A DNA stretch of 32,000 nt from Caldivirga maquilingensis IC-167 (GCF_000018305.1 NC_009954.1:1590001-1622000); one strand, 5' to 3'. Shown: positions 337 through 20,359, counted from the stretch's first letter. A program made the numbers and translations. Notes: generated by a model not told the origin, from the sequence alone.

Positions 337-2025
337 ATGAGTAGTGGAGATTCCGAGGAAAGAGTCTTAGTACTGGCACCTTGGGGTTTACCCACTCTTT
401 GGGATGAAGTTAATTACGTAATCCCCAGGGTTAGTGAGAGTGGTGGGAAATTATGCGTTAGGCCCATTAATATTGAGTGGAATGATGTGGATAAAGTTAA
501 GAGTTATACTTCATTGGCTGGAGTCCTACGTTACATCACTAATGCTGGCCATAAAGGCTTTATTGACGTGATAATCATGGGCTTGGATACATTGGCATTC
601 CCAGATACGCGTAGTCAAAGTGGAAACTGCAACGTAGTGGGGATTCTTAGTGATTTTACCAATACTCTACGTAATGGTAAAGTTAACTACCGTGATATTG
701 AGAACACAGCTTATTCACTCCTTAAGAATTGTATTTCTCAATACCTTGGTGGTTTCAATAGTAAAGCTGATAAAATCAATATTGAGGTCGAGATACTGCC
801 CGGTACAGGAACCTACAGAGCCGGTAACTTTAATGCAAGGTTTATGGGCGGCATCAACAATCTGAACTTCACCATGCTATATAAGCTATACAATAAGGTT
901 AGATACAATAAGTACAGTGCCATTATTATCGACATAACACATGGTGTGAATTACTTACCCATGATAACGTACATGGCTGCTCAGTTAATAGCCAAGTACC
1001 TGAGTGCCAGGGATAATAAGGATATATGCTTAATAACCTTTAATGCAGACCCAATCTCAAGACAAAAAACAGAAGCCACACAGGAGCGAAGACTCAACAT
1101 AATCGAGATGCAAAACATAAGTATTGAACCTCATGAATTCCTCAAAGAGTTAACTGGTAGGTTAAATAAGGAGAAGATCTTTAGAATTGTGAGAACTAAT
1201 CATGATAAGGATAAGATAAACAAATTAAATAAGTTGAATAATAATTATGAAGATATACGACGCCGCTTAAATCCATCGAGGATTACCACATCTCTTGAGT
1301 ATGGTTTTGCACTTTACCTAGTTACTTATCTACGCAAAAATAACCTAACACATGTGAAGGATCTGGAGGAGTTATCAAGGAATATTTCGAATTTATGCGA
1401 TGAAATTTACAACTATATGAATGAGGCAGTTGATATTAGTATTAATAATAATGAGGTTCTCATTTCGAGGATTTACGATTTTGAGACTTCACCGCTGTTA
1501 TTATCCATGGCTTTTGACGTGGTGAGAAACAGGGTCATTAACGTATTGAACCTTGATCAATTAATGGATAATGAGGGTGGTATAGATATTGAATATCTAT
1601 TGAAGATACCGGTTAGCAGTGTAGCTGACACAATACTTAGTAATGAGGTTGATTCAATTAAGCGTGCAGCTGAGTTATTTAGGGATGTTGCTGTTAACTT
1701 ACTGGGTATGAATAAAGGAATCCTGGGTGGTTATGTGAAATACGGAAATATCCATGATTTTGTGAATAAATCCATCATAGACATAGGGCGTAGGTCTAAT
1801 GATATTCGTGAGGAGATTAAGAATTATTCATGCGATAACCAAGATTCACATGATGATTCCGAGTGTAGGTTCAACGATAGGAATTTTATTGCTCATGCTG
1901 GTCTTGAGAGAAATATCACATGTATTAAAATCAGTGGCGATAAAGTATTCATTAAGTATATTGATAAGTGCTTCGAAGATATTGATAAGCACATGGAGAA
2001 TATTAGTAAGGGTAATGCCAAGTAG
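337..2025 (+). CDS. csx1: Csx1-family CARF-HEPN ribonuclease (DxTHG-motif CRISPR-associated protein)
   Basis: DITHG (DxTHG signature) at aa 199-203 (nt 931-945). HEPN R-x4-H motif RNFIAH within RNFIAHAG at aa 515-522 (R515-H520 = nt 1879-1896). N-terminal LVLAPWG strand is typical of the CARF Rossmann fold. Lies next to a cmr locus. Confidence 0.85.
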   Translation: MSSGDSEERVLVLAPWGLPTLWDEVNYVIPRVSESGGKLCVRPINIEWNDVDKVKSYTSLAGVLRYITNAGHKGFIDVIIMGLDTLAFPDTRSQSGNCNVVGILSDFTNTLRNGKVNYRDIENTAYSLLKNCISQYLGGFNSKADKINIEVEILPGTGTYRAGNFNARFMGGINNLNFTMLYKLYNKVRYNKYSAIIIDITHGVNYLPMITYMAAQLIAKYLSARDNKDICLITFNADPISRQKTEATQERRLNIIEMQNISIEPHEFLKELTGRLNKEKIFRIVRTNHDKDKINKLNKLNNNYEDIRRRLNPSRITTSLEYGFALYLVTYLRKNNLTHVKDLEELSRNISNLCDEIYNYMNEAVDISINNNEVLISRIYDFETSPLLLSMAFDVVRNRVINVLNLDQLMDNEGGIDIEYLLKIPVSSVADTILSNEVDSIKRAAELFRDVAVNLLGMNKGILGGYVKYGNIHDFVNKSIIDIGRRSNDIREEIKNYSCDNQDSHDDSECRFNDRNFIAHAGLERNITCIKISGDKVFIKYIDKCFEDIDKHMENISKGNAK

Positions 2026-2032
2026 AGTTGGG

Positions 2033-2042
2033 TTAATATATA
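2033..2042 (+). promoter_or_regulatory. Candidate internal TATA box upstream of the nurA-like gene
   Basis: TTAATATATA lies 20-29 nt upstream of the ATG at 2062, inside the 36-nt csx1/nurA gap. The nurA-herA pair may therefore have its own promoter. Confidence 0.3.
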
Positions 2043-2061
2043 TGTTTGTATTCTACACTTA

Positions 2062-3135
2062 ATGCGTGAGATCTTTGAGTTAGCCTCTTCATTGAGTAGG
2101 TTAATGAGTATTGTTGGTGAATTAGCTAGCCCAGAGCCTATTGATTTAAGTGAAATAGGTGGTTTTGAGGTTGGTTGCGATACGGATTTTACAGTTGGTG
2201 AGTTGAAGCCTGTGAGTATTGATTACCCTTTAATGGGGCTTGATAGTCATTCAAGGATTATTAGGTTCTTAGGTGTTGATGTCCACTTGGTTACTGGTGC
2301 CTTGGTTGGTGGTGATAACGTGTTGATTCCTCAACCTAATGGTACTAATAATGTTAGATGGATCGGCCTTAAGCTTAGATTTAAGCCCCGTGACTATGAA
2401 TTGCTTGATAAGCTTAGTGAAATGTTTTACATTAAGTCTTCGTTCCTTGACAATGAGTATTTCGTGGGTTCTTATAATGATGAGGCTGTTAGGGATGAGG
2501 TTAGGAATCATGTTGAGGTAACCCTCATGAGGGCTGTCAACAATAATGCATTCCTACTGGTGGATGGGCCTGTTTTCCCCACGCCTAGGGTTCTATCCAT
2601 GGAGGGTAATAAGTATGCATCTGTTTTTAATGGTATTATTGAGTCTAGGGTTAAGGCTCTTAATGGGCTTAAGGCAGTGGGTGTTGTTAAGAGGATTGAG
2701 CATAGTCACTTCCTTGCAAGGTATCTTAGAGAGTGCGGTAGGGAGGGTGTACCCATGGTTGATGATTACACACTAGCCATTAAGAGAGCAACCTTGGCTT
2801 TACCTAACTCACGGTCTGTTTACCTAGGCCCCATTGTGGTTAAGGTTGGTAACTGGGTTAAGTACTGCTGGTACGTGGTTACTAGGACTGGTCGTAATGC
2901 CTCTGTTGTTCGTGTGGAGGGGTTGAGCGAAGAGGTTGCCAAGGAGGGTAGGGATTACGTGGGCATGCTAATGACGTTAAGCGGTACCGCGGTACCTATA
3001 CATATTGCTGATAAACTGGCTAGGAGATTGAACGCCAGCGCAGTACTAATGCTCTACAACCTAAGCCCCGGCGGCATCATCACCTACGAGGGCCTTGAGG
3101 AGGTTGAGAGGGCTAGGGGTGACCTTGTTGAGTAA
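2062..3135 (+). CDS. NurA-like nuclease (RNase H-like fold)
   Basis: Three NurA-like motifs occur in the expected order: GLDSHS (D61), E-containing helix RNHVEVTLMRAV followed by FLLVDGPVFP (D168), and C-terminal VPIHIADKLARRL. Length of 357 aa is typical. The stop overlaps the possible starts of the downstream HerA-like gene. Confidence 0.65.
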   Translation: MREIFELASSLSRLMSIVGELASPEPIDLSEIGGFEVGCDTDFTVGELKPVSIDYPLMGLDSHSRIIRFLGVDVHLVTGALVGGDNVLIPQPNGTNNVRWIGLKLRFKPRDYELLDKLSEMFYIKSSFLDNEYFVGSYNDEAVRDEVRNHVEVTLMRAVNNNAFLLVDGPVFPTPRVLSMEGNKYASVFNGIIESRVKALNGLKAVGVVKRIEHSHFLARYLRECGREGVPMVDDYTLAIKRATLALPNSRSVYLGPIVVKVGNWVKYCWYVVTRTGRNASVVRVEGLSEEVAKEGRDYVGMLMTLSGTAVPIHIADKLARRLNASAVLMLYNLSPGGIITYEGLEEVERARGDLVE

Positions 3136-4906
3136 CCTTGATTGTAATGAGTACCTTGGATTCATAACTAGGCAGATGCCCAGTTCCGTGAGTACTGATG
3201 AGGCATTGGCATACATGGTCAGTGGGTGTGATGTCGGTTTCCCAGTGGGTAGGTACGTGGTTATTGAGGATGATGGGGTTAAGTACCTGGCTAAGATTGT
3301 GCAGTCTAGGGTCGAGGATATATACTCCATAGCCAAGACACCGGTAATCTCCCTGGAACAGGAGTTAAGTATGGAAGTACGCTACATACCAAGGTTCATA
3401 GCCCTGGAGTTGATTAGAGAATGTAGGGGAGATGCCTGCAGCCCAGTAACCACTCCACCACAGATACATGCTAAGGTTAGGTGGGCGAGGGATGGTGAAG
3501 TATCGAAAATGCTCTCACTACCGAGCAATGGCGTGGAACTAGGGTACCTGGCACTACCCTCCGGTGAAGTGCTGAGGAGTGAATTCGTGAAAATACCCAT
3601 AGACGCCCTTAAGCACCATGTACTTGTGGTCGGCACCACAGGTAGCGGTAAGACTCAGCTCCTTAAGAACATGGCCCTGGACCTAGTTAGGAATTACAGT
3701 GACTGCGTGGTGATTGCAATGGATGCCGTGGGTCATTACCACCACTTGGCGATGGATAATGTTGAAACCAGGGTTGTAATACCAATGACCAATTCATTGG
3801 TGGGTCGGTTATTGAGGAATATAAAGGTAAGTGAAGCCAAGGAATTAGCTAGGGAGTTTGCACGTAGGCTTGTAAGGTACTACCTAAATGAATTCTACAT
3901 ACGTAGTGGATTAAAAATAAGCGGTAAGGTGAACATAAAGGTTGCCTACAGTAGGGAACAAGAAGACGCCGGGAAGGATAAGGGTTACGTGGTGAAGGTG
4001 AGTAAAGTGATTGTTAAGGCTAAGATTAACATTAATAATAATGATAAGGAAATAAACGTGACGCTACTACCTTGGGCTCTAAAATCCATTGATGTAATGT
4101 ACAGGATCAATGACATAACAGGCTTACTCACGGAGCAGGCTAAATTGTTCTACAGAAGGGTCATTAATGAAGTCACCGATGAATTACCTAGTAATGAAAA
4201 GCCCACGTTTAAGGAGATTTACGAGTATTTAATAAGCCCAAGCAACCAGAGTGAAAGGGGTAGGACACTGGTTAATTATGAGGCTATAGCCAATAAATTA
4301 GGCATTCACCCAAGTACCTTAGAGAACATAGTAAGGGCCATATTATCCCTAGTGGAGACAAGGCTCTTTGACGTGGAGCACAAGGCCGGTGACCACAAGC
4401 TGGTGGTTAAGGAACCTAATTACAGGGAATTATTTAAGCAGGGTTATGTGGTTGTGGATTTGAGGACCACATCAAGCCTCAACCAGAGGATTATAGTCTA
4501 CAGGATCTTGAATAAATTATTCAGAGCCATGAAGCCGGGTGGTAAAAGGATTGCTGTGGTTCTTGTTGATGAGGCGCACTTATTCTTCCCACAGACCAGG
4601 GATGAGACGGAGAAGAGGATAATTGAGAATCAGTTAACCAGGATTGCCAGGCTCGGTAGAAGCCGCGGCATAGCCGTAGTATTCGCCACGCATATGCCGG
4701 ATGACTTAAACGACGCAGTACTACAATTAACAAACACTAAGGTAATCCTCAGGAGTGACGAGAGGGTCCTTGAGAAACTCGGCATACCCACCAGTGAGAG
4801 GAGATTCCTCACAGTGACTGATGCAGGCATTGGTTACGTGAAGTCCTACGCAATGAAGTACCCAATCTACATTAAGTTCGAGCCGAAGGCCTTCCACCTC
4901 GGGTAA
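3095..4906 (+). CDS. HerA-like (DUF87/FtsK-HerA superfamily) hexameric ATPase
   Basis: N-terminal HAS-barrel-like segment (VGRYVVIEDDGVKYLAKIV). Walker A GTTGSGKT (nt 3632-3655). Walker B VVLVDEAH (DE at nt 4568-4573). HerA-type LGRSRGIAVVFATHMPDDLNDAVLQLTNTKVILR. Start is uncertain: the track start 3095 is TTG, and the alternatives are GTG 3119, TTG 3125/3128 and ATG 3176. Confidence 0.8.
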   Translation: MRRLRGLGVTLLSNLDCNEYLGFITRQMPSSVSTDEALAYMVSGCDVGFPVGRYVVIEDDGVKYLAKIVQSRVEDIYSIAKTPVISLEQELSMEVRYIPRFIALELIRECRGDACSPVTTPPQIHAKVRWARDGEVSKMLSLPSNGVELGYLALPSGEVLRSEFVKIPIDALKHHVLVVGTTGSGKTQLLKNMALDLVRNYSDCVVIAMDAVGHYHHLAMDNVETRVVIPMTNSLVGRLLRNIKVSEAKELAREFARRLVRYYLNEFYIRSGLKISGKVNIKVAYSREQEDAGKDKGYVVKVSKVIVKAKININNNDKEINVTLLPWALKSIDVMYRINDITGLLTEQAKLFYRRVINEVTDELPSNEKPTFKEIYEYLISPSNQSERGRTLVNYEAIANKLGIHPSTLENIVRAILSLVETRLFDVEHKAGDHKLVVKEPNYRELFKQGYVVVDLRTTSSLNQRIIVYRILNKLFRAMKPGGKRIAVVLVDEAHLFFPQTRDETEKRIIENQLTRIARLGRSRGIAVVFATHMPDDLNDAVLQLTNTKVILRSDERVLEKLGIPTSERRFLTVTDAGIGYVKSYAMKYPIYIKFEPKAFHLG

Positions 4907-5618
4907 AATCCAGAAGCCACCTGGGAAACTCAAGACCGGAGGCACCACGCCTCAGGAGACCTAAGGATTCCAGCGACTCAAGCAAATCCCCGGGCAGGGA
5001 CGCCAAGTCACCCTCAAGGACCTCACGCCTAAGGCTCAATGGTAACCTCGGTAAAATAACCAACTCACCGCTCTCACTTACATAAACCAATCTAGCACCC
5101 AGTATTGAAGCCACAAGCACAGAGGCCACAACCTCAATCTTCATACCACCACTAATACCTATGAAAACCTCGAAGCCACGCATCAAGTAATTACTCAACT
5201 CCCTACCAAGGGCATCCACAAGGTTTACAAAACCCCTCATCAAGTCACCACCACCGAAGAACCTAACCCTAACGTAACCCGCAACATTCACATGCCTAGA
5301 GAAGCATCTAGCAAGAGCCATAGTGCACAACTCAGCGGCATTAGTATCAGTGCTAAAGAATTCAAGCGTCAAGGGCTTAAACCCCTTCTCAAGCATGGAC
5401 CAGATCAGTGAAGCCTCAGCACAACACCTAGGATTACCGCAGGCAAAGTCTGATAACCTGCTGACGAAATCATCATTAAACAACACGTAGGCAGAATCCT
5501 CAGAACCCTGAAGAACACGACCCACAACCCCAGAGTAATCCCCAAGAGCATCACTACTCAACGCATTCCTCAACAACGAAACCCCCACAGTAATACCAAG
5601 AAAATAACCCATAAACAA
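4872..5618 (-). CDS. Stand-alone CARF-domain protein (APE2256-like family); candidate cOA sensor or ring nuclease
   Basis: N-terminal ITVGVSLLRN resembles the TVGTSLLxN CARF strand-loop. CAEASLI, STDTNAAE and ISGGMK resemble the SAE, TDT and (S/T)GG(F/M)K motifs of this family. No recognisable effector domain. The short C-terminal segment LESLESLGLLRRG could be a small wHTH. Confidence 0.55.
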   Translation of the reverse strand: MFMGYFLGITVGVSLLRNALSSDALGDYSGVVGRVLQGSEDSAYVLFNDDFVSRLSDFACGNPRCCAEASLIWSMLEKGFKPLTLEFFSTDTNAAELCTMALARCFSRHVNVAGYVRVRFFGGGDLMRGFVNLVDALGRELSNYLMRGFEVFIGISGGMKIEVVASVLVASILGARLVYVSESGELVILPRLPLSLRREVLEGDLASLPGDLLESLESLGLLRRGASGLEFPRWLLDFTRGGRPSART

Positions 5619-5742: not shown

Positions 5743-6603
5743 TTAATGTCTTTGCTGCTCCAATATTCCATAGCCAAGCGCCGTCTTAGCACCAATACCC
5801 CTACTAAACACTTTAGTTACTATACTCTGCAAATCATTAATCGTACAAACACCCTTGCAATCACTCGATAGGTAGATGTAATCCCCAGGCTCATTTCTGC
5901 ATCTATACTTTAACCTCCTCCTCTCAGCCATTATAATAACCCTAAAACCCACGCCAGTGGACACTGTGAGGAACGGTACAGGTACAGGCTTCACCTGGGG
6001 CTCGGCAATGGTTCTCGCGGGTTCAGCGTAGTGTGGGTTTATAATATCAAGCGTCATTAATGATTTCCCAGAGGGGCAGTAAACTGGGTATGAGTCCAGG
6101 ACAATTACGTGTGAGGCCTCGTCCATACTGCCGAAAGCCTGTGAGCATTGCGTCCCTTCAGCTGAGGCTCTCATGGCACCCTTTAGGGAGCTTGCGGGTA
6201 TATAGGGCAAGTTCATTATTGGATCCCAGGAGATGCCTTGTTCGAGAATCTCGAAGTAAGGGTTCCTAAGCCCAATGGCTAACCTAGTTAGTGTTATGAA
6301 TATGTTGTTGATTACTATTTCATAACCGAGATCCTTTAGTGCGTTTACCTGTTCGTCAAGGTACTTATTCGCTTTATCTAGTAAATCCTTGATGGTACTG
6401 CATTTATAGGCATCAGCGATACTCCTCATGGCATCCCTAGCAAATTCAGATATACCCACAACCTCCCGCTCACCTCCCCTCCCTGCCTTGCCCATTAAGT
6501 CCTTCGTGAAGTTCAGGAACTCACGCCTTACGTAACTAACCACGTTCGTGCCAGTATCCAGTGCAGTTTTCCCTCCAGTTACTGAGGCCATACGCGCTTC
6601 CAC
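5743..6603 (-). CDS. cmr6: Cmr6 (type III-B RAMP subunit)
   Basis: LPYIPASSLKGAMRA RAMP motif and C-terminal glycine-rich loop GIGAKTALGYGIL. It is the last gene of the cmr4-5-1-6 operon and overlaps cmr1 by 25 nt. Confidence 0.85.
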   Translation of the reverse strand: MEARMASVTGGKTALDTGTNVVSYVRREFLNFTKDLMGKAGRGGEREVVGISEFARDAMRSIADAYKCSTIKDLLDKANKYLDEQVNALKDLGYEIVINNIFITLTRLAIGLRNPYFEILEQGISWDPIMNLPYIPASSLKGAMRASAEGTQCSQAFGSMDEASHVIVLDSYPVYCPSGKSLMTLDIINPHYAEPARTIAEPQVKPVPVPFLTVSTGVGFRVIIMAERRRLKYRCRNEPGDYIYLSSDCKGVCTINDLQSIVTKVFSRGIGAKTALGYGILEQQRH

Positions 6604-7814
6604 CTTATTCTCTGTCTACCCAGATATTCTAGGAATTCGTTTAATGCTACGTAACTCGCATTTATTATGTCACGCTCATTAATAGTAATTGGTTTTGAGC
6701 CAGCGCCGTGCCAGGTTAATCCGCTGGGCCAATCAGCCGATAAGAACAATGCCAGGTAAGCAACATCATTATTAATGCCATGGATCGAGAGGAGCATTGA
6801 TGAAGCCCTCCTAACTATATTATTTGACATTAACCTATACCCGGTCCCCTTCTGCTCCCTGGGTAGGCCCAGTATCCAGGCCATAAACTCGTTTCTAAGT
6901 TCGTCCTTTGCTTTGGGGTTTCCCATGAGTATTTTAGCCCTTTCGGGTCTTAGGAAGAAGTTATGCAACTTAGGTAGTAAATCCCTGCCGTAAACCTCAA
7001 ATAACTGAAACACAAACAACCTATCGACATATCTATTTTTCACTTTCACATCAACACATTTTGTTAATTCCACATTACTAACTACAGGCATTGGTGGTAA
7101 CTCGCAGGATTCAAGACCACTCTTGCTCATCTCTTTAACTATGTCTTTTACAAGCTCTATTGTATAATTCAACTTCTTAGCAAATTCTTTATGGTTAAGG
7201 TTAAAGAGAAAACTATAGTCACCATCAACCTTATCTACATCAAGGCACCCAAGCCCCCTCCTACCACCCTTACCGAAGCATGAGAGGGTCAAGGCTATGG
7301 ATAAAACACTAAGGGATGCCTTAATGGCATTATCATCATTTAATTTCACATTATTATGTTTATCAATGGTTACGTAGAATTCAGCGCTGGGTTCCACATA
7401 TTGTAGCGTTCTACAGTCAAGGGTTAGTAAGCCAATCCTTTGGAGTACCTTACCACTTACGCGGTTGCTACATGCCTTATTGATCCTAATGTTTTGCCCA
7501 TGCCTGATTATCAACTTAAGGTGAGAGGCCACGCTCTCCTCACCAGCATAACCAAGTCCCAACTTCTCGCCCACGATTTTCGAGACCTTCTTAGCCTCGT
7601 CTTTCTTCGGCACTTTAATAATGTCCTTATCCGGATGGCCATGGAGCTGACCTGCCTCGTATAGAGCACCACTCACAAACGTCCTGGCCCACCAACGCCA
7701 AACACCCTTAACCTCACTGGGCCTCAGGGGCCAATCATAATCGACACTATTGGGGTCCGCGGAGCCTGTGAATAATGGCGTCACCAACCTGAGGGTAAGC
7801 TCTGCATATGTCAT
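6579..7814 (-). CDS. cmr1: Cmr1 (type III-B RAMP subunit)
   Basis: N-terminus LRLVTPLFTGSAD...LRPSEVKGVWRWWART matches the Cmr1 pattern (TPlf.gg ... ps.kG..RfW.R). Second G-rich segment GKGGRRGLG. ATGA overlap with cmr5. Confidence 0.8.
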   Translation of the reverse strand: MTYAELTLRLVTPLFTGSADPNSVDYDWPLRPSEVKGVWRWWARTFVSGALYEAGQLHGHPDKDIIKVPKKDEAKKVSKIVGEKLGLGYAGEESVASHLKLIIRHGQNIRINKACSNRVSGKVLQRIGLLTLDCRTLQYVEPSAEFYVTIDKHNNVKLNDDNAIKASLSVLSIALTLSCFGKGGRRGLGCLDVDKVDGDYSFLFNLNHKEFAKKLNYTIELVKDIVKEMSKSGLESCELPPMPVVSNVELTKCVDVKVKNRYVDRLFVFQLFEVYGRDLLPKLHNFFLRPERAKILMGNPKAKDELRNEFMAWILGLPREQKGTGYRLMSNNIVRRASSMLLSIHGINNDVAYLALFLSADWPSGLTWHGAGSKPITINERDIINASYVALNEFLEYLGRQRIRWKRVWPQ

Positions 7815-8299
7815 TGAGTCACCTCAGATATCATGGCCTCGGCAAGTCTCTTCAACCAATCAGCGAATGTCAGAATCTTATTAGTAACTATGACTTCGGT
7901 GCCTAGTGTGTTCAATTTATTAAGTAAATCCATCAAGTCCTTAGCCCCATCAATTAAGCCTAATTCCCTCATGGCCCATAGAAGGCATGCCCCATAAACT
8001 TCATAGGCCTCATCACTTATTTTATTCTTAATATTGCTTAGGTACTTTCCTATGTCCTTCTCATTAAGCACATTATTTAATTTACCATAACCACTCCCGT
8101 TCTTGTCTGAGGACTTCGCGAGTATGAATGCAAGTTCATACGTTAAACCATTGTAGTAAATACCCTCAAGTTCCCTCCTACACCTAGTCCTAAACCCCTT
8201 AAGTATATCATTATTGTTTAGGTTCTTGACTGCGTTGATGCAAGTTATGGCTAAATCCAAAGCCTTGTCCCTAACCTGCTCACTCATGGCAACCACCAA
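7811..8299 (-). CDS. cmr5: Cmr5 (type III-B small subunit)
   Basis: 162-aa protein that looks all-helical, positioned between cmr4 and cmr1. The segment NGLTYELAFILAKS...GSGYGKL resembles the conserved Cmr5 core. Confidence 0.7.
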   Translation of the reverse strand: MVVAMSEQVRDKALDLAITCINAVKNLNNNDILKGFRTRCRRELEGIYYNGLTYELAFILAKSSDKNGSGYGKLNNVLNEKDIGKYLSNIKNKISDEAYEVYGACLLWAMRELGLIDGAKDLMDLLNKLNTLGTEVIVTNKILTFADWLKRLAEAMISEVTQ

Positions 8300-9312
8300 A
8301 CCTTGGCTAAGCCCTTACCTAAGGTCTCCTTACCACCAAGTATGAAGATCGTGGAGGGATCTTGCGTCTCACCCCTTAAGTACCTGCATACCTCCTCTGC
8401 GTTATTCTTCATGTTAGTGAACTTCTGTAGGACATCACTTGAATCACCCACCTTTTCCTTGAAGGATTTCTCATTAATTCTAGGTTTACTGCACACCACG
8501 CCAGACACGAAAACAGTGAACTGGGGTAGGTACTCCTCCTCCCAGAGCCCGCCTTCAGTTACGGTCTTTTTGGAGTAATCAAGCCTTACCCTTGTTTGTA
8601 TAATGATGCTTCTCTTAATCAACTCCATCATATCATCATCACTAACTAACACCAAGCCTCTCTCCTTAACCCTCTCAGCAATGACGTTAGGTAGCGCTTT
8701 ATTAACAACTTCATTTAATTTCTCATTTAATTTGACATTTACATTGGCATTGAACTCGATTTCATTGAGTACGGCTTTCCCACCACTAATGACAAGGTCC
8801 CCCTTACTAACCACTGCAGTGCCCTGGTCAATGTTTTCCGTGAGTTTGATTAATTGGTCCAGGGCATTTTGGTACTTGCTTAAGTTGTTGTTAAGTGTCT
8901 CGAGGGCATCCACGTAAGTCCTATAGTAATTAAGCAAATGCCTCGAGGTTGCGTAGGCCCAAACACCCCTTAGCGACCTAATGGGCATTAGCAGGAGCTT
9001 GGCATCTAGGAAATTAACCACAGAGGAATACTCACTCACCTCGTCAGTGCCAGGCTCGGGCCCGAAAACCGCATTAATAAGCACTTTATGGCGCTGGTCA
9101 TTGCTTGAGCGGTTTAGTGTGAGGGAGCTCCTAATGGCACCCTTAAGGCTGCTGGACCATATAACGGGAATCCCAAATTCATCCTTCTGAACCTCTAAAT
9201 CCACGATCTTACCACCGCTACCAGTGCCTGGGTGCATGGGCGTTAGTGCCTCAATAAACGTTAACATAGAGTACTTGAGCGGGGCATTATTTTGTACACC
9301 AGTGGTGCTCAC
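8284..9312 (-). CDS. cmr4: Cmr4 (type III-B backbone RAMP, target-RNA cleaving subunit)
   Basis: LTPMHPGTGSGGKIVDLEVQKDEFGIPVIWSSSLKGAIRS is the canonical Cmr4 N-terminus, including the catalytic-position Asp (IVDLEV). C-terminal GGKETLGKG loop. GTG start at 9312. Confidence 0.9.
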   Translation of the reverse strand: MSTTGVQNNAPLKYSMLTFIEALTPMHPGTGSGGKIVDLEVQKDEFGIPVIWSSSLKGAIRSSLTLNRSSNDQRHKVLINAVFGPEPGTDEVSEYSSVVNFLDAKLLLMPIRSLRGVWAYATSRHLLNYYRTYVDALETLNNNLSKYQNALDQLIKLTENIDQGTAVVSKGDLVISGGKAVLNEIEFNANVNVKLNEKLNEVVNKALPNVIAERVKERGLVLVSDDDMMELIKRSIIIQTRVRLDYSKKTVTEGGLWEEEYLPQFTVFVSGVVCSKPRINEKSFKEKVGDSSDVLQKFTNMKNNAEEVCRYLRGETQDPSTIFILGGKETLGKGLAKVWWLP

Positions 9313-9395
9313 GTTTAGCTACTCTATTGAATATTTTTAAATTTTAAGTGACTATAATTAGTAAAGCTTAAAATAACACCTGTTGCTAAGCTATA
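9313..9395. promoter_or_regulatory. Divergent cmr promoter region (cmr4 operon leftward, cas10-cmr3 rightward)
   Basis: 83-nt A/T-rich gap with TATA-like ATATTTTTAAATTTTA (9331-9346) and TTAAAATA (about 9369-9376, 20-27 nt before the cas10 GTG at 9396). Confidence 0.4.
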
Positions 9396-12300
9396 GTGAG
9401 CAGTATTAATTCGTTTTTTGAGAAGAAGCTGTTGGCTTTAATGCATGATCCACCCAATAAAATGTGGATGATAATTAACGGAAAAGACCATGAGAAAGAA
9501 GCTGGGAGAATATATAATGATATTTTCAAGGAGACGGGAATAAGAGAGTTTACAGGGGGTGTTCCACCATATAAGGATTATAACAACCCCACCACCAGGA
9601 TTATTAAGGAAGCCGATTTGTTGGCTTCATCCTTCGATAGGTGGGTATTCCTAAAACCCAGTGGCGCCAATTACGTAGTTAAGAACATCAGGTACTTAAA
9701 CATATTTAAGCCAGCCACGCACCTCAAATATGAAATAAAGAACCAGGATATTAACATTGATAATTACGTAAAGAACATAAACGACATCCTTAAGAAATTA
9801 AACAGCAACATAAAGGATAACCCAAGGGCAGTCTACAACCTACTTTACGCATTATACGAGAGTGAGTGGGTAAAGCTAGGCCTACCACCAAGCCTAGCAG
9901 ACACAAGGGCACCGACACACGATGTCTTCGACCACGACTACGCAACCGTTATGATAATGAACTGGTTGCTTAATGGTAAGTTCAGCGGCTACTACGTGGT
10001 TGGTGACATACCGGGTGTTCAGCAGTTCATAATGGCGAGCAGGAAGGCGGGGGACCTATGGGCTAGTAGCTGGGTAATATCCATGACCATATGGCTCACC
10101 CTATGGCCATTGATATGGCACTACGGGCCGGACATACTGATTAGACCCACGGCGAGGCTAAACCCGCTGTATTACACATTCTTAGCGGCATCTTTAGACC
10201 TAGTAGCAGACGGTAAGGATCCTGAGGAGTCAGATAACCTATGTCTAATACTTAGGAAAGCAATTGAGTATGATATTAAACACACTAATTTAGTAAATTT
10301 AGTAATAGAACTAATAAAACCGCTATTAAAACCATTACTTCAACAAATCCAACAAGATCAACAAGAGAAATTGATAAGGAGAGTATTGAGCATCGCGTTT
10401 ATAGGCGAAGCATTCCAATTAGCGCTGCCACCAATCAACCCTGAGGGAAATGAGCTAAAGAGGCTGAAGAAGGACGATATACTCAGCAAGATCAGGGACA
10501 ACTTCGAAAAAGCCACCAAATGCCTAATTAATATATCCAGAGACGAAGTAAACAAGGAAGAGAATGACTATGTGAAGAGGATACTCCGGAGGGCCTTAGA
10601 CAAAGGATTGATCGAGCTAAGGCTACCACTAAGGGTGGCAGTGCTAGACGTAGGCAACTTATACAGTAAGTACAGGAGCGAGAAAGGATGCCCATTGAGC
10701 GACGATGTGTTGAGGGAAATAGGCATGGACAGGGAGGCGTGCCTAGACGCGCTCTTCTTCGACTACCTAATGACCAGCAAGGACGTAATAAAGGCAATAC
10801 GTGAAGAGGAAATGACGAGAATACCAACCAAGGGCGCATGGTTCGATGAACAGGGAAACCTGCTTTTCACGAAGCTTTATGACGGTGACTGGACAATAAG
10901 CACGCTAAGCCCAGATACGCCGGCAGTGATGAGGTTCGGTAAACGCTTTGAAAATAATAGGTTATGCTATGACGAAAAGACAACTAAGTGGTTAAATGAA
11001 TTGCTGAACATAAACAACCCTATATGCACAAATACTGATAATAATAACGAACGTAGATTAATAAGCACGTTCAAACCAGGAGAGGCGCTGAGCCCAGTGG
11101 ATCTAGCCAAGAGATTAATATATATTGGGTTAAGCGGGAAGTTAGAACTGGGCTTCGAGAGTACCGATGACGTAGCCGTGAAATACTTACATAGCCTACT
11201 CGAGTATAACAATATTGCAAATAAAGTATACCGTCGTGGTGATAAATATTGCGAGAGCTTATTGAGAGACTATATAATGAGGCCTAATCCACCCAGGGAC
11301 ATGGACCTAATATGCAAAGACCAAGTATGCGGAAACCCAGAACAAATAAGGAGACTGGCCAGAGACTGCGTTGAGGAATTCGGCAAAAAGGAGGAGGACA
11401 AGGGGGTCGCTGAGGAAATAATAGGTAAGTTAACCAAGGACGGGGTATTACAGGACATACACAACCTAGTGGGTAATGGGGCCGACATGGCGGTAAACGC
11501 AGTGAAGGAGCTCCTCAACTTCCACTTCATGTACGCGATAATAAGGGGTGACGGGGACTCACTGGGCAGGATTCATCGCGGTGAACTACCCAATTACTAC
11601 GAATCACTACGTGAATTCTATGAGGACTTAAAAGAGAAGGCTAATGAATTGGTAATTGGTAATAAGGATGAATTCCTGAAGGACTTGGAAAACCAGGAAA
11701 AGTTACTAAGTGAGTTAGAGGAAAGATTAGAGGAAAAAGAGGAAAAGCTAGAGGGAAAAACAAAGATAAGGGTACCGGTGACTCCTGCATATAAGTTTGC
11801 AATAACGAGGGCGCTCATGGTAACGGCAATGAGGGTGCTCGCAAGGACCATGGACATATCCATGCCCGTGTACCTGGGCGGGGACGACCTATTGATTTTG
11901 TCGCCCGTGGAGGCAGCTCTGAAGATTGTTGAGGACTCCAGGAAGATATACTGGGCAGTGGATGAGAACACACCCTTCTTCCACAAGGTCAATAAGGACT
12001 ACGTAATACCAGCCCTAGCAGCCTATGGGCAAAGCTACTCAATAAGGTACGCACACCTCCTCGACATATTCTCAGAGGAGTACCTAAGGGCAGGGGAACT
12101 CCTTGAGGAGGTGGCTAAGGAGGCGAGGTGGGGCGGTGATTACGAGAAGGACTCACTGGTCATAAGCCACTCGAGAACGGGCACCGAGGTCGTACTACCA
12201 ATAAGGCCAGAAAATAATGGGGACAACTGGGTGATCGACTCCATAGATCGCCTAAGGACCCTATGGACAGCGCTGTTGGCAGGGCTGGTGAGTAGCAACA

Positions 12301-12533
12301 CGCCTGAGGACTTGGACAAATACAGCGAATTATTCATGAGGGATCAACCCGACATGGGGATAATCAAGGACGTCTTAAAAACAATACTCAAAAGAAACAT
12401 AAAGGTGACCGGCGAGGAGGGTAAGCAAAACGTGGCGAGTAAACTCCTGGGTGAGGATGTGTACGATGGTTACTACCACACCGTGTGGTACAACTTAATT
12501 AACTCAATAAGAATACTGAGGCGATTACCATGA
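9396..12533 (+). CDS. cas10: Cas10/Cmr2, type III-B large subunit with HD and cyclase (GGDD) motifs
   Basis: N-terminal LMHDPPNK (H17 D18, nt 9444-9449). Cmr2 signature ADTRAPTHDVFDHD. Palm motifs IIRGDGDSLG (nt 11547-11567) and VYLGGDDLLILSP (GGDD at nt 11877-11888). 1045 aa. ATGA overlap with cmr3. Confidence 0.95.
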   Translation: MSSINSFFEKKLLALMHDPPNKMWMIINGKDHEKEAGRIYNDIFKETGIREFTGGVPPYKDYNNPTTRIIKEADLLASSFDRWVFLKPSGANYVVKNIRYLNIFKPATHLKYEIKNQDINIDNYVKNINDILKKLNSNIKDNPRAVYNLLYALYESEWVKLGLPPSLADTRAPTHDVFDHDYATVMIMNWLLNGKFSGYYVVGDIPGVQQFIMASRKAGDLWASSWVISMTIWLTLWPLIWHYGPDILIRPTARLNPLYYTFLAASLDLVADGKDPEESDNLCLILRKAIEYDIKHTNLVNLVIELIKPLLKPLLQQIQQDQQEKLIRRVLSIAFIGEAFQLALPPINPEGNELKRLKKDDILSKIRDNFEKATKCLINISRDEVNKEENDYVKRILRRALDKGLIELRLPLRVAVLDVGNLYSKYRSEKGCPLSDDVLREIGMDREACLDALFFDYLMTSKDVIKAIREEEMTRIPTKGAWFDEQGNLLFTKLYDGDWTISTLSPDTPAVMRFGKRFENNRLCYDEKTTKWLNELLNINNPICTNTDNNNERRLISTFKPGEALSPVDLAKRLIYIGLSGKLELGFESTDDVAVKYLHSLLEYNNIANKVYRRGDKYCESLLRDYIMRPNPPRDMDLICKDQVCGNPEQIRRLARDCVEEFGKKEEDKGVAEEIIGKLTKDGVLQDIHNLVGNGADMAVNAVKELLNFHFMYAIIRGDGDSLGRIHRGELPNYYESLREFYEDLKEKANELVIGNKDEFLKDLENQEKLLSELEERLEEKEEKLEGKTKIRVPVTPAYKFAITRALMVTAMRVLARTMDISMPVYLGGDDLLILSPVEAALKIVEDSRKIYWAVDENTPFFHKVNKDYVIPALAAYGQSYSIRYAHLLDIFSEEYLRAGELLEEVAKEARWGGDYEKDSLVISHSRTGTEVVLPIRPENNGDNWVIDSIDRLRTLWTALLAGLVSSNTPEDLDKYSELFMRDQPDMGIIKDVLKTILKRNIKVTGEEGKQNVASKLLGEDVYDGYYHTVWYNLINSIRILRRLP

Positions 12534-13525
12534 GCCAGGCCCGTGAATTCCTTGAATTAAGGATAAAGCCCATAGAGCCACTACACCTCACGGCAGGCCC
12601 CATAAGGGGCATAGACCTAATAAGCGCAACCAGGGCATCATACGCACCACTACCCACAACGGTAATAGGGTTACTCGCAAACATATACTATGAAACAAAT
12701 AATAAAACCCAAACCGGTAAAATCCAGGACCTAGACTGTGGGGTGGAGGATTTGCTTAAGGTTAAGGATGAGGCTGGTATAGAGGACGTATGGGGACCAT
12801 TAATTGTAATAAACGGGAGGGAACACTTCCTGGTGGAAAACACGCTACTACCCGTAGAGACTCTGAAGGACTATGTAGAACTCGTGAAAATGGATAAGGA
12901 ATGCCAGGGGGAGTGTTACCAAGACCTAACTAAGGAATACTACCAATTCAGGGAAATAAGCAAAGTAGGCATAGCGATTAATATGGAGACTAGAACGGTA
13001 AGGCAGGGATTCATGTACGTACAGAAGTATACATGGCCGTATAGAGTAATTAAGGATGATGAATCGGAACCAGTACCACCGGGATGGTACTATAAGTACA
13101 TAATAATCATGAACCCGCAGAAGGCGGGGTGGATACGAGGTAAAATCACGTGGAACATAGGTGGTGAAGGTAGGCAAGCATTAATAGAGATGGGGAGAAC
13201 AAACCAAAAACCACCACAACCCACGAAAGAAGCAATACTACTCACACCACTAATATTCACAGGGGAGAAACCATACGTGGAGGTAGACAAAATAGACCCA
13301 AACATAGGGAAAATACATGGAATATTAACAAGCAAGGGGCCAAAGATAAAAATCACAACAACATCACTAGGCTACCGTGGTAAAACTAATCAATCAGAAA
13401 ACTGTAGAAGACCCATATACCCGGCACTACCGCCAGGGACGCTTGTAGAATTGAAGCAGCAGGTAAGTAAATTAGGGTTATATACGCAATTAGGGTATGG
13501 GGCAACATACCCACTCCCCCTCTAA
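12530..13525 (+). CDS. cmr3: Cmr3 (type III-B RAMP subunit)
   Basis: Translationally coupled to cas10. N-terminus LRIKPIEPLHLTAGP is Cmr3-like. C-terminal G-rich loop LGLYTQLGYGATYP. Confidence 0.8.
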   Translation: MSQAREFLELRIKPIEPLHLTAGPIRGIDLISATRASYAPLPTTVIGLLANIYYETNNKTQTGKIQDLDCGVEDLLKVKDEAGIEDVWGPLIVINGREHFLVENTLLPVETLKDYVELVKMDKECQGECYQDLTKEYYQFREISKVGIAINMETRTVRQGFMYVQKYTWPYRVIKDDESEPVPPGWYYKYIIIMNPQKAGWIRGKITWNIGGEGRQALIEMGRTNQKPPQPTKEAILLTPLIFTGEKPYVEVDKIDPNIGKIHGILTSKGPKIKITTTSLGYRGKTNQSENCRRPIYPALPPGTLVELKQQVSKLGLYTQLGYGATYPLPL

Positions 13526-13557: not shown

Positions 13558-14361
13558 TTACTGAAGGGTGTATTGTTTGGTTAATATTTTTCCTAAGTCG
13601 GTGGGTTTGTATATGTATGCCTTCCCCACTTTCTCATACGTTATTACCCCCTTCCTCCTTAATTTCGTTAGTTTCCTCTCAATTGATGCCTTTGATGGCC
13701 TTCTACTCCTTTCGAATTGACCATTAATTGCCTGTATTATCTCCTTTGCCTTAATCCCATCCTCCTTAGAGGTAATGATTCTCAGTATTTCATACTCCAG
13801 CTTATCCATGCTGGTTAATGCTGGTATAATCGGCCAGTGTATTATCCTCTCCCTAATTCCTGGAAAGATCCTCTTTATACTGGGACTCTCCTCCTCAAGC
13901 ATTACGAAGACATCCTCAACATTAACACGAGTATACCCACCTATGGTTTTTAACGCCATGGCCAGGAACATGAGAACCACGGATAACCACCTTAAACCAC
14001 CGGCAATGGCTATGGTTACTGAGGTTGGTGCCAAGGATTCCACAAGAGTCCTGAGTAATGCCACGTTATCAGCAAGGTGCCTACTCGGCGATAACCACAC
14101 ATCCTTAATATCCACTTCAGGTATATTATCGAGTATTATTTTTCTAATCTGATTCATCGCATCCTCCGGCTGCATCCTACCTCCACGGGGCCTTAGGTCT
14201 TCAATCCTCCTGGGCTCACTATTAACCAGTATAATGACGTCACCCGGCCCAACACCTATACTCATTATCGCTACAATAGCGTTATACGGATACATGCCCA
14301 CACTCACCACTATTGTCCTCTTTAATTTCAACTCCTCAATTGATTGAGGTGAATTCACCAT
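13558..14361 (-). CDS. csa3: Csa3-type regulator (CARF domain plus C-terminal winged HTH)
   Basis: N-terminal Rossmann-like IVVSVGMYPYNAIVAI...DVIILVNSEP. C-terminal wHTH EILRIITSKE...SKASIERKLTKLRRKGVITYEKVGKAYIYKPTDLG. Sits between the cmr and type I-A modules. Confidence 0.75.
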   Translation of the reverse strand: MVNSPQSIEELKLKRTIVVSVGMYPYNAIVAIMSIGVGPGDVIILVNSEPRRIEDLRPRGGRMQPEDAMNQIRKIILDNIPEVDIKDVWLSPSRHLADNVALLRTLVESLAPTSVTIAIAGGLRWLSVVLMFLAMALKTIGGYTRVNVEDVFVMLEEESPSIKRIFPGIRERIIHWPIIPALTSMDKLEYEILRIITSKEDGIKAKEIIQAINGQFERSRRPSKASIERKLTKLRRKGVITYEKVGKAYIYKPTDLGKILTKQYTLQ

Positions 14362-14395: not shown

Positions 14396-14424
14396 TCTTA
14401 TCAGGAGTCTTTTTGTGGAGGTGT

Positions 14425-14793
14425 ATGTCGCAGTCTAGTCAAGATGAGTCGCAAAAGGTAAAGACATATACCTTTGAAAATATGATTGATCTCTTAGCAA
14501 CCTACGTCAGTAATAGTGAGTATGGTGTGCTCGACGCTATGGTGAATGCTCATGATATCGAAGGATCACTTAAGGCGCTCTATAACGCTGTTAGGTACGC
14601 AGTTACTAAGGGCTACATTACCAAGCCAAATGAATTATACGGTGAGGTAAATGCATTCACCGAGGCAGTCAGGAGGTATGGCAAGAGAATTATTTACGAG
14701 ATCGCCATAAAGGCGCTCGTAAAGGGCTACATGAGGGCCTATGAAACAACGAAGGCTGCTAGTGAAGAGCAGGAGTCTGTAAGACAGGGGTGA
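14425..14793 (+). CDS. csa5: Probable Csa5 (type I-A small subunit)
   Basis: Small (about 122 aa) protein that looks helical, immediately upstream of cas7 (Csa2), which is the canonical csa5 position. The track start 14413 is TTG; ATG 14425 fits the TATA spacing better. Assignment rests on position and size only. Confidence 0.5.
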   Translation: MSQSSQDESQKVKTYTFENMIDLLATYVSNSEYGVLDAMVNAHDIEGSLKALYNAVRYAVTKGYITKPNELYGEVNAFTEAVRRYGKRIIYEIAIKALVKGYMRAYETTKAASEEQESVRQG

Positions 14794-14797
14794 GAGC

Positions 14798-15967
14798 ATG
14801 GTCTTCGTGAGCATGGGCTTTAGGTTTAGGGTTCAGGCAGAAGCCATGAACATGGTCGAGTCATGGGGCAATTACACCAGACACAGAATAATACCTGTAA
14901 TTAAGAGAGTGAGGACAAAAAACGGAGTAATTAAGTATAAAGTTCAGTACGCACCAGCAGTATCAGGGCAAAGTATTAATTACGCATTCATGAAGGTACT
15001 CACTAACCTTGCAATTGAAAGGAACTTGCCGGTATGCGATGAGTGCAAAAGATATGAATTAATAGGCGGCTTTCCGAAGAGACCAGAAATAGAGGACAAT
15101 GAAGAGAAGAAGCTAATTAACGAATCCTTTGGCTACCTTAAAGTTGAGGGGAAGAGAGTATTGGAATGCGTTGTTGAGGATATAACAGGCTTTATGGCAG
15201 TTACAGAGACAGAGAGGGGTGGAAAAAGGAGAACTAAAAAGGAGAAAAACCCCGAAAAAGAGACCGATAGAACTGAGAAGGGCGCAGGCGTTAAAAGGAC
15301 CGCCAAGGTTTGGTTCAGTTACTTACTACCAGACCCCAACAGCGACTTCTCAGTGGGACCTCAGTTCCACGTTAGGTTTAATAGGGAGAATCCTGACGAG
15401 CAGGCAGTAATCCAGGTTGAGTCAGGGAGTGCTATTTACACCCTCTACACCTTCATTGACGTTGACGGAATAGGCGCATACTATGAGAGGGCGAACGATA
15501 GGTATGTACTTAAGTATGTTAATAACCGCAGGGAGAGGATTAAATTAGTCTTTGACGCATTAATGCTAACCCTGAGCGGACTTCTTGGCGCGAAGCAGTC
15601 AAGGTACCTATCGATTAGGGAATCCCTTAGTGGTATTGCCGTGGTATCTAAGGTTCCATTTATGGTCTCTCCAGTTGTTTTCGGCTACGACTACGTGCAA
15701 GATACTGTAGATAGAGCAAAAATAATTAGTAAGGTAATAGTTGAAACAAGCACTGGCACTGGTTCCCAACAAGATGCCAGCTCCGAATCCACCACATCTG
15801 TGATTAAAATCTTTTACTATGATAGAGAAGGAATCCACCCAAAGGAAAGCAAGCCAGAAAAGAAAGAAAGTGAGACCTACAAGGAACCCATAGAAATAAA
15901 TGAGGTATCTGGACCCGAGGACATGATCAATAAGGTTAAAGAGACAGTCCTAAATATGCTTAAATAA
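14798..15967 (+). CDS. cas7: Cas7 (Csa2), type I-A backbone subunit
   Basis: N-terminus FRFRVQAEAMNMVESWGNYTRHR matches the Csa2 signature (eaLNm.Es.GN...H). VSGQSINYAF motif. Carries a K/R/E-rich insertion and a long low-complexity C-terminal tail. Confidence 0.85.
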   Translation: MVFVSMGFRFRVQAEAMNMVESWGNYTRHRIIPVIKRVRTKNGVIKYKVQYAPAVSGQSINYAFMKVLTNLAIERNLPVCDECKRYELIGGFPKRPEIEDNEEKKLINESFGYLKVEGKRVLECVVEDITGFMAVTETERGGKRRTKKEKNPEKETDRTEKGAGVKRTAKVWFSYLLPDPNSDFSVGPQFHVRFNRENPDEQAVIQVESGSAIYTLYTFIDVDGIGAYYERANDRYVLKYVNNRRERIKLVFDALMLTLSGLLGAKQSRYLSIRESLSGIAVVSKVPFMVSPVVFGYDYVQDTVDRAKIISKVIVETSTGTGSQQDASSESTTSVIKIFYYDREGIHPKESKPEKKESETYKEPIEINEVSGPEDMINKVKETVLNMLK

Positions 15968-15982
15968 CAAATAAAGTAGGTA

Positions 15983-19594: not shown

Positions 19595-20359
19595 ATGCCT
19601 TGCTGGGCCTACTACCCTAAGCAAGACATGGGGGACCGCGAGAAGCCTGAGGAATACTACTTACACATTAATGACATAATTGACTATATGAGTAAGTCAC
19701 CCTTGTTAAGCGCTATCGTGAAGAAAATAAAGTACATAACCAATATAGAGGAGGAATTCATTGTAGACTTTATACTATTAAGCGGATTGTTCCACGACAT
19801 TGGGAAAACGATTATTCATTACCAGAAAAACCCCGTGAACTTCAGTGGCCATGAAGTCGCAAGCATGGTGTTTGTGTACCATGCACTCATAAAGATAGGC
19901 TTACTTAAGAGCAACGACATTATCAAGAAGTTAATGGAAAGTAGCAACACCGGTAAGAAGGAGTTATACGCAGCACTCACCCTGGTACCAATATTCCTAC
20001 ACCACTATGCATTCGGGAACTTTAACGAAAGAATCAAAAAGGGTCTAGAGCTAGTAAACAATAAGGACGACTTTAGAATCTACGATGATTGCAAAGACGA
20101 AATCGAGAAAACCCTTAAGTACATAAATGAAATTATAAAAAGTGAAGAAGCAATCAAGGTAATCAAGGCAGCTAAGGAATTAATAACAACAAATGACCTC
20201 CACATAGTAATTCACAAACTAGATGACCAGGTCGAAAAAGACCTACCCTACTTAAGTTCAGACAGCATCAACCTCCGCATTGCATCAACCGTACTTTCAT
20301 TACTCAATGAAGCAGACGGCAGGGTATCCATAAAAAACCGCCGCAGAAACCCTAAATGA
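19595..20359 (+). CDS. cas3: Cas3'' (stand-alone HD nuclease)
   Basis: HD motif LSGLFHDIGK, followed by H-containing motifs (FSGHEVAS, FLHHYAF). Starts directly after the cas3' stop. Confidence 0.85.
   Translation: MPCWAYYPKQDMGDREKPEEYYLHINDIIDYMSKSPLLSAIVKKIKYITNIEEEFIVDFILLSGLFHDIGKTIIHYQKNPVNFSGHEVASMVFVYHALIKIGLLKSNDIIKKLMESSNTGKKELYAALTLVPIFLHHYAFGNFNERIKKGLELVNNKDDFRIYDDCKDEIEKTLKYINEIIKSEEAIKVIKAAKELITTNDLHIVIHKLDDQVEKDLPYLSSDSINLRIASTVLSLLNEADGRVSIKNRRRNPK

Follow-up and report, generated by a model that had tools for sequence, protein, structure and literature searches.

A NurA-HerA pair linked to CRISPR loci in Caldivirga maquilingensis and the Crn1-family gene that accompanies it

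What does a NurA-like nuclease paired with a HerA-like ATPase do beside a type III-B CRISPR-Cas module? The question is raised by positions 2,062 to 4,906 of a 32,000-nucleotide (nt) stretch of Caldivirga maquilingensis IC-167 DNA (GCF_000018305.1, NC_009954.1:1590001-1622000), hereafter the window, where nurA-like and herA-like genes overlap. In the canonical archaeal machine, HerA and NurA form a 6:2 complex that cuts both strands of double-stranded DNA in an ATP-dependent manner (PMC12977600). An earlier note, made from the sequence alone, read the Caldivirga pair as a paralogous module recruited as a type III accessory DNA effector. Our analysis adds that the unit consists of three genes, not two, the third being a Crn1-family gene with an intact catalytic pair. 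We give about an even chance to the reading that this unit is dedicated to CRISPR, and that it is an ATP-driven DNA translocase-nuclease tied to cyclic tetra-adenylate (cA4) through its Crn1-like partner.

CRISPR linkage and a third gene

We scored 119 loci with profiles for NurA, HerA and CARF, a reference-free array detector and BLAST against cas references, and dereplicated them at 90% identity. The HerA proteins of Caldivirga, Vulcanisaeta, Thermocladium, Thermoproteus, Pyrobaculum and uncultured Thermoproteales (class I) form a well-separated clade in a neighbour-joining tree; class II is a mixed HerA group that includes Acidianus, and class III is mostly from Desulfurococcales. Among lineages with at least 5 kb of flanking sequence, CRISPR arrays or cas genes accompany the pair in 11 of 14 lineages of class I and 5 of 7 of class II, versus 0 of 15 of class III (Fisher p = 1e-5 and p = 8e-4, respectively). 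The first refuting condition of the earlier note, that orthologues lie beside type III loci no more often than by chance, does not overturn the linkage, and the CRISPR linkage of the class I pair is specific. A Pfam census of 102 class I neighbour open reading frames (ORFs) returned RAMPs (11), the Cas10 palm domain (5), Cmr5 (3), Cas6 (3) and Cas1 (2), with Csa1, Cmr2_N and Cas4 as further common families. For the 117 class III neighbour ORFs, the 25 most frequent families include no core cas family and just one with a cas name, a weak match to Cas4 (E-value 1e-5, two ORFs), PD-(D/E)XK matches being equally frequent. The sister NurA-HerA clades that have no CRISPR link provide a natural control.

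The right-hand neighbour of the pair, which the earlier note had called a stand-alone CARF gene, is a regular member of the unit. Of 19 class I clusters, 18 have a Crn1-family CARF gene no more than 1.2 kb from the pair, as against none of 15 class III clusters (p = 9e-9); the one class I exception is a 1.5-kb contig fragment. The adjacency is kept across three gene orders: nurA-CARF-herA in the Thermoproteus type, which is also the order in Pyrobaculum (Bernick 2012, PMC3396285); nurA-herA with a convergent CARF gene downstream, the type of Caldivirga, Vulcanisaeta and Thermocladium; and CARF-nurA-herA-CARF in a type found in metagenome-assembled genomes (MAGs). It also persists in a Thermocladium lineage where cas genes are absent for 10 kb around. 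Mean distance across the clade is ~50% for HerA and ~70% for CARF. The left-hand neighbour of the window pair, Csx1, has BLAST homologues in just two further loci, L072 and L075; because Csx1 is so inconstant a neighbour, the ring-nuclease-type gene tracks NurA-HerA and not the known cA4 effector. Since the presumed cA4 binder follows the pair, and not the RNase, through these rearrangements, the activity or the expression of HerA-NurA may be tied to cA4. The earlier note had expected any coupling to cyclic oligoadenylate (cOA) to be indirect or novel, a view that gives way here because the neighbouring CARF gene is a conserved third member of the unit and encodes a full-length Crn1-family protein.

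In the window, the Crn1-family gene occupies 4872-5618 on the minus strand, and its 3' end overlaps that of herA by 35 nt. The protein combines a CARF domain of the CARF7 group with a small winged helix-turn-helix (wHTH) domain, and it matches Pfam Cas_APE2256 (E-value 7e-33), PADLOC CARF7 (E-value 8.5e-58) and, by phmmer, the structures 3QYF and 7PQ2. Crn1 itself belongs to CARF7 (PMC12409355). A 12-sequence CARF profile recovers Sso1393 (3QYF, E-value 6e-37) and Sis0811 (7PQ2, E-value 4.6e-35) through both CARF and wHTH domains, over chain residues 8-268. In Sis0811, cleavage of cA4 requires S12 and K169 (PMC8643638); their equivalents in the window are Ser14 (nt 5577-5579) and Lys160 (nt 5139-5141), and the catalytic Ser and Lys are kept in 22 of 22 dereplicated CARF proteins of the trio. 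The long form of Crn1 (Sso1393, Sis0811) further shares Asn16 and the T98/T100 motif with the window protein. In contrast, several of its cA4-contact residues are altered (D75 to S, S103 to A, Y189 to V, Y191 deleted), the wHTH of the Caldivirga type is shorter, and the obligate linkage to NurA-HerA is not reported for Crn1. We file the protein as Crn1-family, or Crn1-like, and not as an equivalog, because it scores 20.1 bits against the NCBIfam ring-nuclease equivalog NF040951, below the cutoff of 600.

The association itself is not new, a point that the earlier note could not verify: a CRISPR-linked NurA-HerA association is already known, and the locus in Caldivirga is an ordinary representative of that catalogued family, with nothing that would set it outside. 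Bernick 2012 (PMC3396285) described CRISPR-linked nurA-csm6-herA clusters in Thermoproteales, in which csm6 belongs to the APE2256 family. Vestergaard 2014 catalogued 'Cas HerA' and 'Cas NurA', with 14 genes each, as 'Types I + III-specific'; clusters 57 and 58 of Shah 2018 are the 'Type III coevolved' NurA/HerA; Altae-Tran 2023 lists NurA and HerA among putative CRISPR auxiliary genes; and PADLOC holds dedicated models. The 2026 paper on the T. kodakarensis complex (PMC12977600) cites the genomic association only, and our literature search found no biochemical or genetic study of CRISPR-linked NurA-HerA. The interest lies in the function of the family and in a sharper, three-gene hypothesis, not in novelty. 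The pair of Vulcanisaeta distributa (CP002100, 1.09-1.11 Mb) is 51% and 56% identical to that of Caldivirga and has the same synteny to the Cmr genes; its position fits Vdis_1157/1158 of Bernick 2012. Like the catalogued family, the Caldivirga unit gives full-length PADLOC matches, has an APE2256-type CARF gene attached and adjoins type III-B and I-A modules. The sole difference is gene order, as the CARF gene of Caldivirga, Vulcanisaeta and Thermocladium lies convergently downstream of herA and that of Pyrobaculum between nurA and herA.

The nuclease and the ATPase

The two proteins are divergent yet structurally typical, and every candidate catalytic residue is kept. The nurA-like gene (2062-3135, plus strand) encodes 357 amino acids (aa) that include the motifs by which the earlier note recognised it, GLDSHS (nt 2236-2253), LLVDGP (2554-2571) and HIADKLARR (3001-3027). 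Its product is 100% identical to a C. maquilingensis protein. The NurA assignment is borne out by profiles and by fold. The protein matches Pfam PF09376 (E-value 7.4e-11, 42.5 bits, cutoff 21, profile positions 47-254 of 254) and the PADLOC model 'NurA - Type III coevolved' PDLC01056 (E-value 1.1e-128, 427 bits, profile 1-310/310). Its AlphaFold model has a predicted local distance difference test (pLDDT) score of 91.6, and the best 12 Foldseek matches in the PDB are all NurA or NurA-like chains, from T. kodakarensis, S. solfataricus, P. furiosus, D. radiodurans and chain G of the TdpAB complex, with probabilities of 0.99-1.00, E-values of 3e-8 to 1e-4 and low template modelling (TM) scores of 0.32-0.45. 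The family match is nevertheless distant, because PDB sequence searches with the protein and with a 19-sequence family profile recovered no solved NurA.

Across 52 non-identical NurA relatives from three clades, D61, R148, E152, D168-G-P, K210-R211, D235, R284, E286 and D317 are invariant, and E146 is Glu or Asp in the other classes. The codons of D61, D168 and D317 are nt 2242-2244, 2563-2565 and 3010-3012. In the model, D61 is placed on strand 57-69, E146 and E152 on helix 140-157, D168 at the end of strand 164-168 and D317 at the start of helix 311-334. The metal tetrad of P. furiosus NurA is D51, E105, D126 and H411 (PMC3300031). Residues D61, E146/E152, D168 and D317, which follow the same order, are the candidate catalytic set, and its last position would be Asp, not His.

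The herA-like ORF opens at TTG 3095 and runs to 4906 on the plus strand (603 aa), and the database protein of 592 aa starts at TTG 3128 (3128-4906). The latter start gives an 8-nt overlap with the end of nurA (stop at 3133-3135), in keeping with the overlap between the nurA stop and the candidate herA starts seen in the earlier note. The overlap is 4-8 nt in the window, V. distributa and Thermocladium, which fits translational coupling. The protein matches Pfam DUF87 (E-value 9e-11, 42.7 bits, cutoff 23.2) and HerA_C (E-value 4e-10, 39.3 bits, cutoff 22), and it scores 848 bits against the PADLOC model 'HerA - Type III coevolved' PDLC01055 (E-value 9e-256, profile 5-532/532) versus 25-58 bits against the PADLOC anti-phage HerA models. 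Its structural model has a pLDDT of 93, and the top PDB match by Foldseek is S. solfataricus HerA (4D2I, E-value 9e-23), followed by the Tko, Dra, TdpA, Sir2-HerA and DUF4297-HerA structures; the alignments to 4D2I, 9X1M and 7WRX cover ~600-690 columns with E-values of about 1e-21 to 1e-22 and TM scores of 0.52-0.64. These profile and fold matches uphold the HerA assignment. The HAS-barrel-like N-terminus proposed in the earlier note fares less evenly: the N-terminal 160 residues are predicted to be all-beta and the whole chain matches the HerA fold, but the Pfam HAS-barrel model has no match in the protein.

The ATPase motifs are those expected by the earlier note. Walker A (GTTGSGKT) lies at 3632-3655, Walker B (VDEAH) at 4565-4579 and the RLGR arginine-finger region at 4649-4660, all on the plus strand, and G169-T176, D481, E482, H484, R508 and R511 are invariant in 102 of 102 aligned relatives. 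Between the Walker motifs, the HerA insertion contains a predicted winged-helix-like unit (4208-4408, plus strand) with the order helix 361-369, strands 371-376 and 379-382, helices 383-391 and 395-410, and strands 416-420 and 423-427. It holds NYEAIANKLGIHPSTLENIVRAI, the stretch that the earlier note had called helix-turn-helix-like and that is indeed predicted as two helices (383-391 and 395-410 of the 592-aa protein). We rejected the insertion as a CRISPR-specific adaptation: its motif H394, T397, N400, R403 and D415 is largely conserved in CRISPR-linked and non-CRISPR classes, and because this holds across all three classes, the insertion is a property of the wider HerA subfamily. A different pattern is seen for four cysteines of the N-terminal domain, located by alignment (3143-3145, 3227-3229, 3422-3424 and 3437-3439, plus strand). 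They are invariant in 34-35 of 35 class I HerA proteins and absent in classes II and III, so that the four-cysteine class is also the class with the CARF partner. Judged from the sequence, a metal site or a docking site is a possible role for them.

With the canonical archaeal HerA-NurA end-resection complexes (S. solfataricus 4D2I and 2YGK; P. furiosus 3TAL; T. kodakarensis 9X1L), the pair shares both folds, the order of the NurA acidic residues, the HerA Walker A/B motifs and arginine finger, and adjacent, overlapping genes. It departs from them in lying outside an mre11/rad50 operon, in falling short of the repair equivalogs, in NurA fold TM scores of no more than 0.36-0.45 and in the clade-specific four-cysteine set of its HerA. 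Among bacterial systems, Sir2-HerA (Nezha), HerA-DUF4297 and TdpAB are all matched by the HerA model (E-values 1e-18 to 1e-20). TdpAB combines a HerA-like TdpA with a NurA-like TdpB, and its chain G (8WFD) is matched by the NurA model with an E-value of 2.7e-6; the system senses phosphorothioate-modified DNA. What the bacterial HerA defence systems have in common with it is their logic, in which a destructive partner is loaded or activated by an ATPase ring during defence. They stand alone and sense infection themselves, whereas the Caldivirga pair comes with CRISPR-Cas and with a presumed cA4 binder.

Models for the three-gene unit

By analogy with the solved complexes, a HerA hexamer and a NurA dimer would assemble as the usual machine, which, driven by ATP, would pull double-stranded DNA in from an end, pass it to both NurA sites and degrade it. 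The signalling steps are suggested by gene linkage. Cmr would bind invader RNA and Cas10 would make cA4; a CARF dimer would bind the cA4 and would then either dock on HerA-NurA as a sensor subunit or turn on transcription of nurA-herA; and the ring-nuclease activity of the CARF protein would cleave the cA4 and reset the system. The outcome is the least certain part: processive destruction of linear or nicked invader DNA, with fragments that may also feed spacer capture by Cas1-Cas2-Cas4. If a cA4-gated translocase-nuclease of this kind exists, type III signalling gains a motor-driven DNase arm, and archaea, which to our knowledge have no RecBCD, gain a possible direct route from interference to spacer capture.

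A transcriptional version has a partial parallel in S. islandicus, where the CARF-wHTH protein Csa3a is reported to activate nurA and herA (PMC5587795, PMC8616872, PMC12977600). The likeness is that a CARF-wHTH protein links CRISPR signalling to NurA/HerA. The difference is that Csa3a (CARF3) targets housekeeping repair genes, whereas the Caldivirga pair is a dedicated paralogue with a CARF7 protein.

A more specific version makes the Crn1-like dimer the cA4-sensing regulatory subunit of HerA6-NurA2, perhaps docking on the four-cysteine domain; the result would be a DNA shredder timed by its own cA4 cleavage, with products that seed spacer acquisition. We consider this version unlikely on balance. 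Most of the effectors known to be activated by cOA are single proteins to which a sensor is fused, and a sensor subunit of this kind, if real, would be the first cOA-controlled translocase-ring effector to act in trans via a separate CARF protein.

Several observations weigh against a cA4-tied machine. First, neither NurA nor HerA has a sensor domain, as the earlier note had already remarked, and a plain off-switch accounts just as well for a Crn1-type protein that keeps its catalytic pair. Second, the distance matrices correlate well (r = 0.82-0.88 for HerA-CARF and 0.91 for HerA-NurA), but shared phylogeny inflates these figures. Third, the CRISPR-linked pairs of class II (Acidianus L038 and L039, and L072/L075) mostly have no adjacent Crn1-like gene, so the CRISPR link is not strictly CARF-dependent, and three class I lineages have neither a cas gene nor an array in the DNA examined. 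Fourth, one lineage carries the unit inside an adaptation module (csa1-cas4-cas1-CARF-cas2-cas6), and a few kb, which include a CRISPR array, separate it from adaptation genes in a second lineage; both arrangements favour a role in spacer uptake.

This last point leads to the alternative that survives best, which we nonetheless regard as somewhat unlikely: the unit as a helper of adaptation, in which a HerA-NurA paralogue resects or fragments DNA for prespacers or repairs the array after integration. In archaea it would take the part that RecBCD/AddAB play in the spacer acquisition of bacteria, with the CARF protein only tuning the timing; this reading overlaps with that of a cA4-tied translocase-nuclease, and the two are compatible. 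A role in adaptation was proposed for nurA-csm6-herA by Bernick 2012 (PMC3396285), where P. islandicum, possibly unable to adapt its arrays further, is also found to be without these genes. In the MAG lineages L005, L010 and L071 the unit is embedded in the order csa1-cas4-cas1-CARF-cas2-cas6-nurA-herA-CARF, and in L069 the unit and the adaptation genes share one locus. Many class I lineages carry a CRISPR array that opens ~250 nt or less from the Crn1-like gene (arrays at L001 12714-13304, L050 8966-9479, L043 11343-13632 and L047 2381-5600). The 'Types I + III-specific' label of Vestergaard 2014 counts in the same direction, as does Csa3a, which is reported to co-activate adaptation genes with nurA/herA in S. 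islandicus. In contrast, the unit adjoins the Cmr interference module in the window and in V. distributa, and cmr6 occupies in Caldivirga the place next to the Crn1-like gene where many class I lineages have the array. No cas1, cas2 or cas4 was found in the 32-kb window, the families count as type III-coevolved in Shah 2018, and a constant partner that is presumed to bind cA4 argues for signalling rather than integration. The Cmr-adjacent Caldivirga arrangement favours interference, and the position inside or close to adaptation modules in two lineages, with the P. islandicum correlation, favours adaptation.

In the next alternative, which we think unlikely, the third gene and the pair are independent neighbours. 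The Crn1-like gene would switch off Csx1-type effectors, and NurA-HerA would be a cOA-independent accessory, for instance one that clears DNA nicked by the Cas10 HD domain or by the type I-A Cas3, the two being merely inherited together. The catalytic Ser and Lys of Crn1 in every copy fit an off-switch; crenarchaeal type III loci commonly carry Crn1, which is paired with Csx1 (PMC12409355), and Csx1 is present in the window; and the class II pairs do without a CARF gene. On the other side, the CARF adjacency survives three gene orders and separation from all cas genes, and BLAST finds Csx1 absent from the other class I loci. Passive co-inheritance would be expected to break at the divergence seen within the clade, yet 18 of 19 clusters keep the adjacency.

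The relation to repair HerA bears on whether the pair is the cell's own repair machinery. The HerA protein falls far below the cutoffs of both NCBIfam repair-HerA equivalogs, NF040937 (58 bits, cutoff 800) and NF040819 (50.8 bits, cutoff 970), and the genome holds at least one other HerA-family gene; both results agree with the paralogous status claimed in the earlier note. The second gene, found with the HerA paralogue beside the Thermocladium trio as query, encodes ABW02546.1 (524 aa) and lies on the same chromosome in a housekeeping context. No nurA lies beside ABW02546.1 at that locus. The unpaired gene scores 166 bits on the repair-HerA equivalog, far below cutoff, and every additional HerA-like gene that was tested likewise stays below the cutoffs of the repair-HerA equivalogs. 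Elsewhere, Pyrobaculum has at least three paralogous nurA-herA pairs and V. distributa has separate repair-type genes (Bernick 2012, PMC3396285). Profile searches found no Mre11 or Rad50 family member among the ORFs of the 32-kb window, as the earlier note had observed. That the pair is an ordinary housekeeping double-strand-break repair pair, close to CRISPR genes by chance, is very improbable: its NCBI label, 'DNA double-strand break repair nuclease NurA', and a fold and catalytic residues that are those of the repair enzymes speak for it, but the repair-HerA equivalogs are missed by more than 700 bits, mre11 and rad50 are not found nearby, the genome has another HerA-family gene, the whole clade is CRISPR-linked and its sister clade is not, and separate repair-type paralogues are documented in Pyrobaculum and Vulcanisaeta, so that this reading was set aside, as was that of chance ORFs, with the PADLOC models matched.

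Two observations concern the unpaired HerA-family gene in its own right. It is conserved across Thermoproteales (L120 3961-5535; L003 5182-6822), and in Thermocladium an unpaired HerA gene lies 2 kb upstream of the CRISPR-type trio.

The surrounding locus

The arrangement of the window agrees with the earlier note in that csx1 lies to the left of the pair, the CARF gene to its right, and a complete Cmr module with a GGDD-bearing Cas10 beyond. The csx1 gene (337-2025, plus strand) encodes CARF and HEPN domains of a cA4-activated RNase family, with matches to Pfam Csx1_CARF (E-value 6.5e-35) and Csx1_HEPN (E-value 1.3e-11), TIGR01897 (124 bits, cutoff 110) and PADLOC Csx1/Csm6 (E-value 2e-85). 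The spacer between csx1 and nurA is 36 nt long (2026-2061) and contains a TATA-like, AT-rich element, TTAATATATAT (2033-2043, plus strand), ~24 nt 5' of the nurA ATG. Read from the spacer sequence, TTAATATATAT is a possible promoter of a leaderless nurA-herA transcript of its own.

The type III-B module, identified by Pfam and NCBIfam searches, spans 5743-13525 on both strands. Its cmr6, cmr1, cmr5 and cmr4 genes (5743-9312) are on the minus strand, and cas10/cmr2 (9396-12533) and cmr3 (12530-13525) are on the plus strand. In Cas10, GGDD is found at residue 828 and HD at residue 17, and the module is the presumed source of cA4. Between the Cmr and type I-A modules lies a CARF-wHTH regulator of the Csa3 type (13558-14361, minus strand), with matches to PADLOC CARF3 (E-value 6e-71) and Csa3 (E-value 8e-8) and a C-terminal winged-helix match in Pfam. 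With this gene, the window has three different CARF proteins: Csx1 (CARF9-HEPN), the Crn1-like protein (CARF7) and Csa3 (CARF3). The type I-A interference module (cas7, cas3' and the HD gene cas3'') follows at 14413-20359 on the plus strand.

A CRISPR array of seven repeats of GAAAATCCCAAAAGGGATTAGAAAG, spaced at 65-72 nt, occupies 21611-22046. A 146-aa 'ORF' across it (21592-22032, minus strand) was rejected as a gene, being an artefact of the GAAAATCCCAAAAGGGATTAGAAAG repeats. In the gap of ~1.2 kb between cas3'' and the array (20360-21590) there is no ORF of at least 80 aa, and tblastn detects there no remnant of cas6, cas1, cas2 or cas4; the segment could be an array leader or decayed sequence. 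The genes beyond the array are housekeeping genes.

A scan of viral contigs found no relative. In V. distributa, a RecF/SMC-like AAA_15/AAA_21 ATPase gene and a 153-aa gene lie directly upstream of nurA (L001 7351-8879) and are similar to an accessory pair of Shah 2018, 'cluster 17 / cluster 83'. In class III, the non-CRISPR NurA-HerA pair lies beside a conserved block in three loci of Desulfurococcales type (L007 2963-6709, L008 3433-6734 and L014 4959-8260). The block consists of DHH phosphoesterase, histone-deacetylase-like, CYTH and PD-(D/E)XK genes, with a NUDIX gene also present in L007, and together with NurA-HerA it may represent a different functional module.

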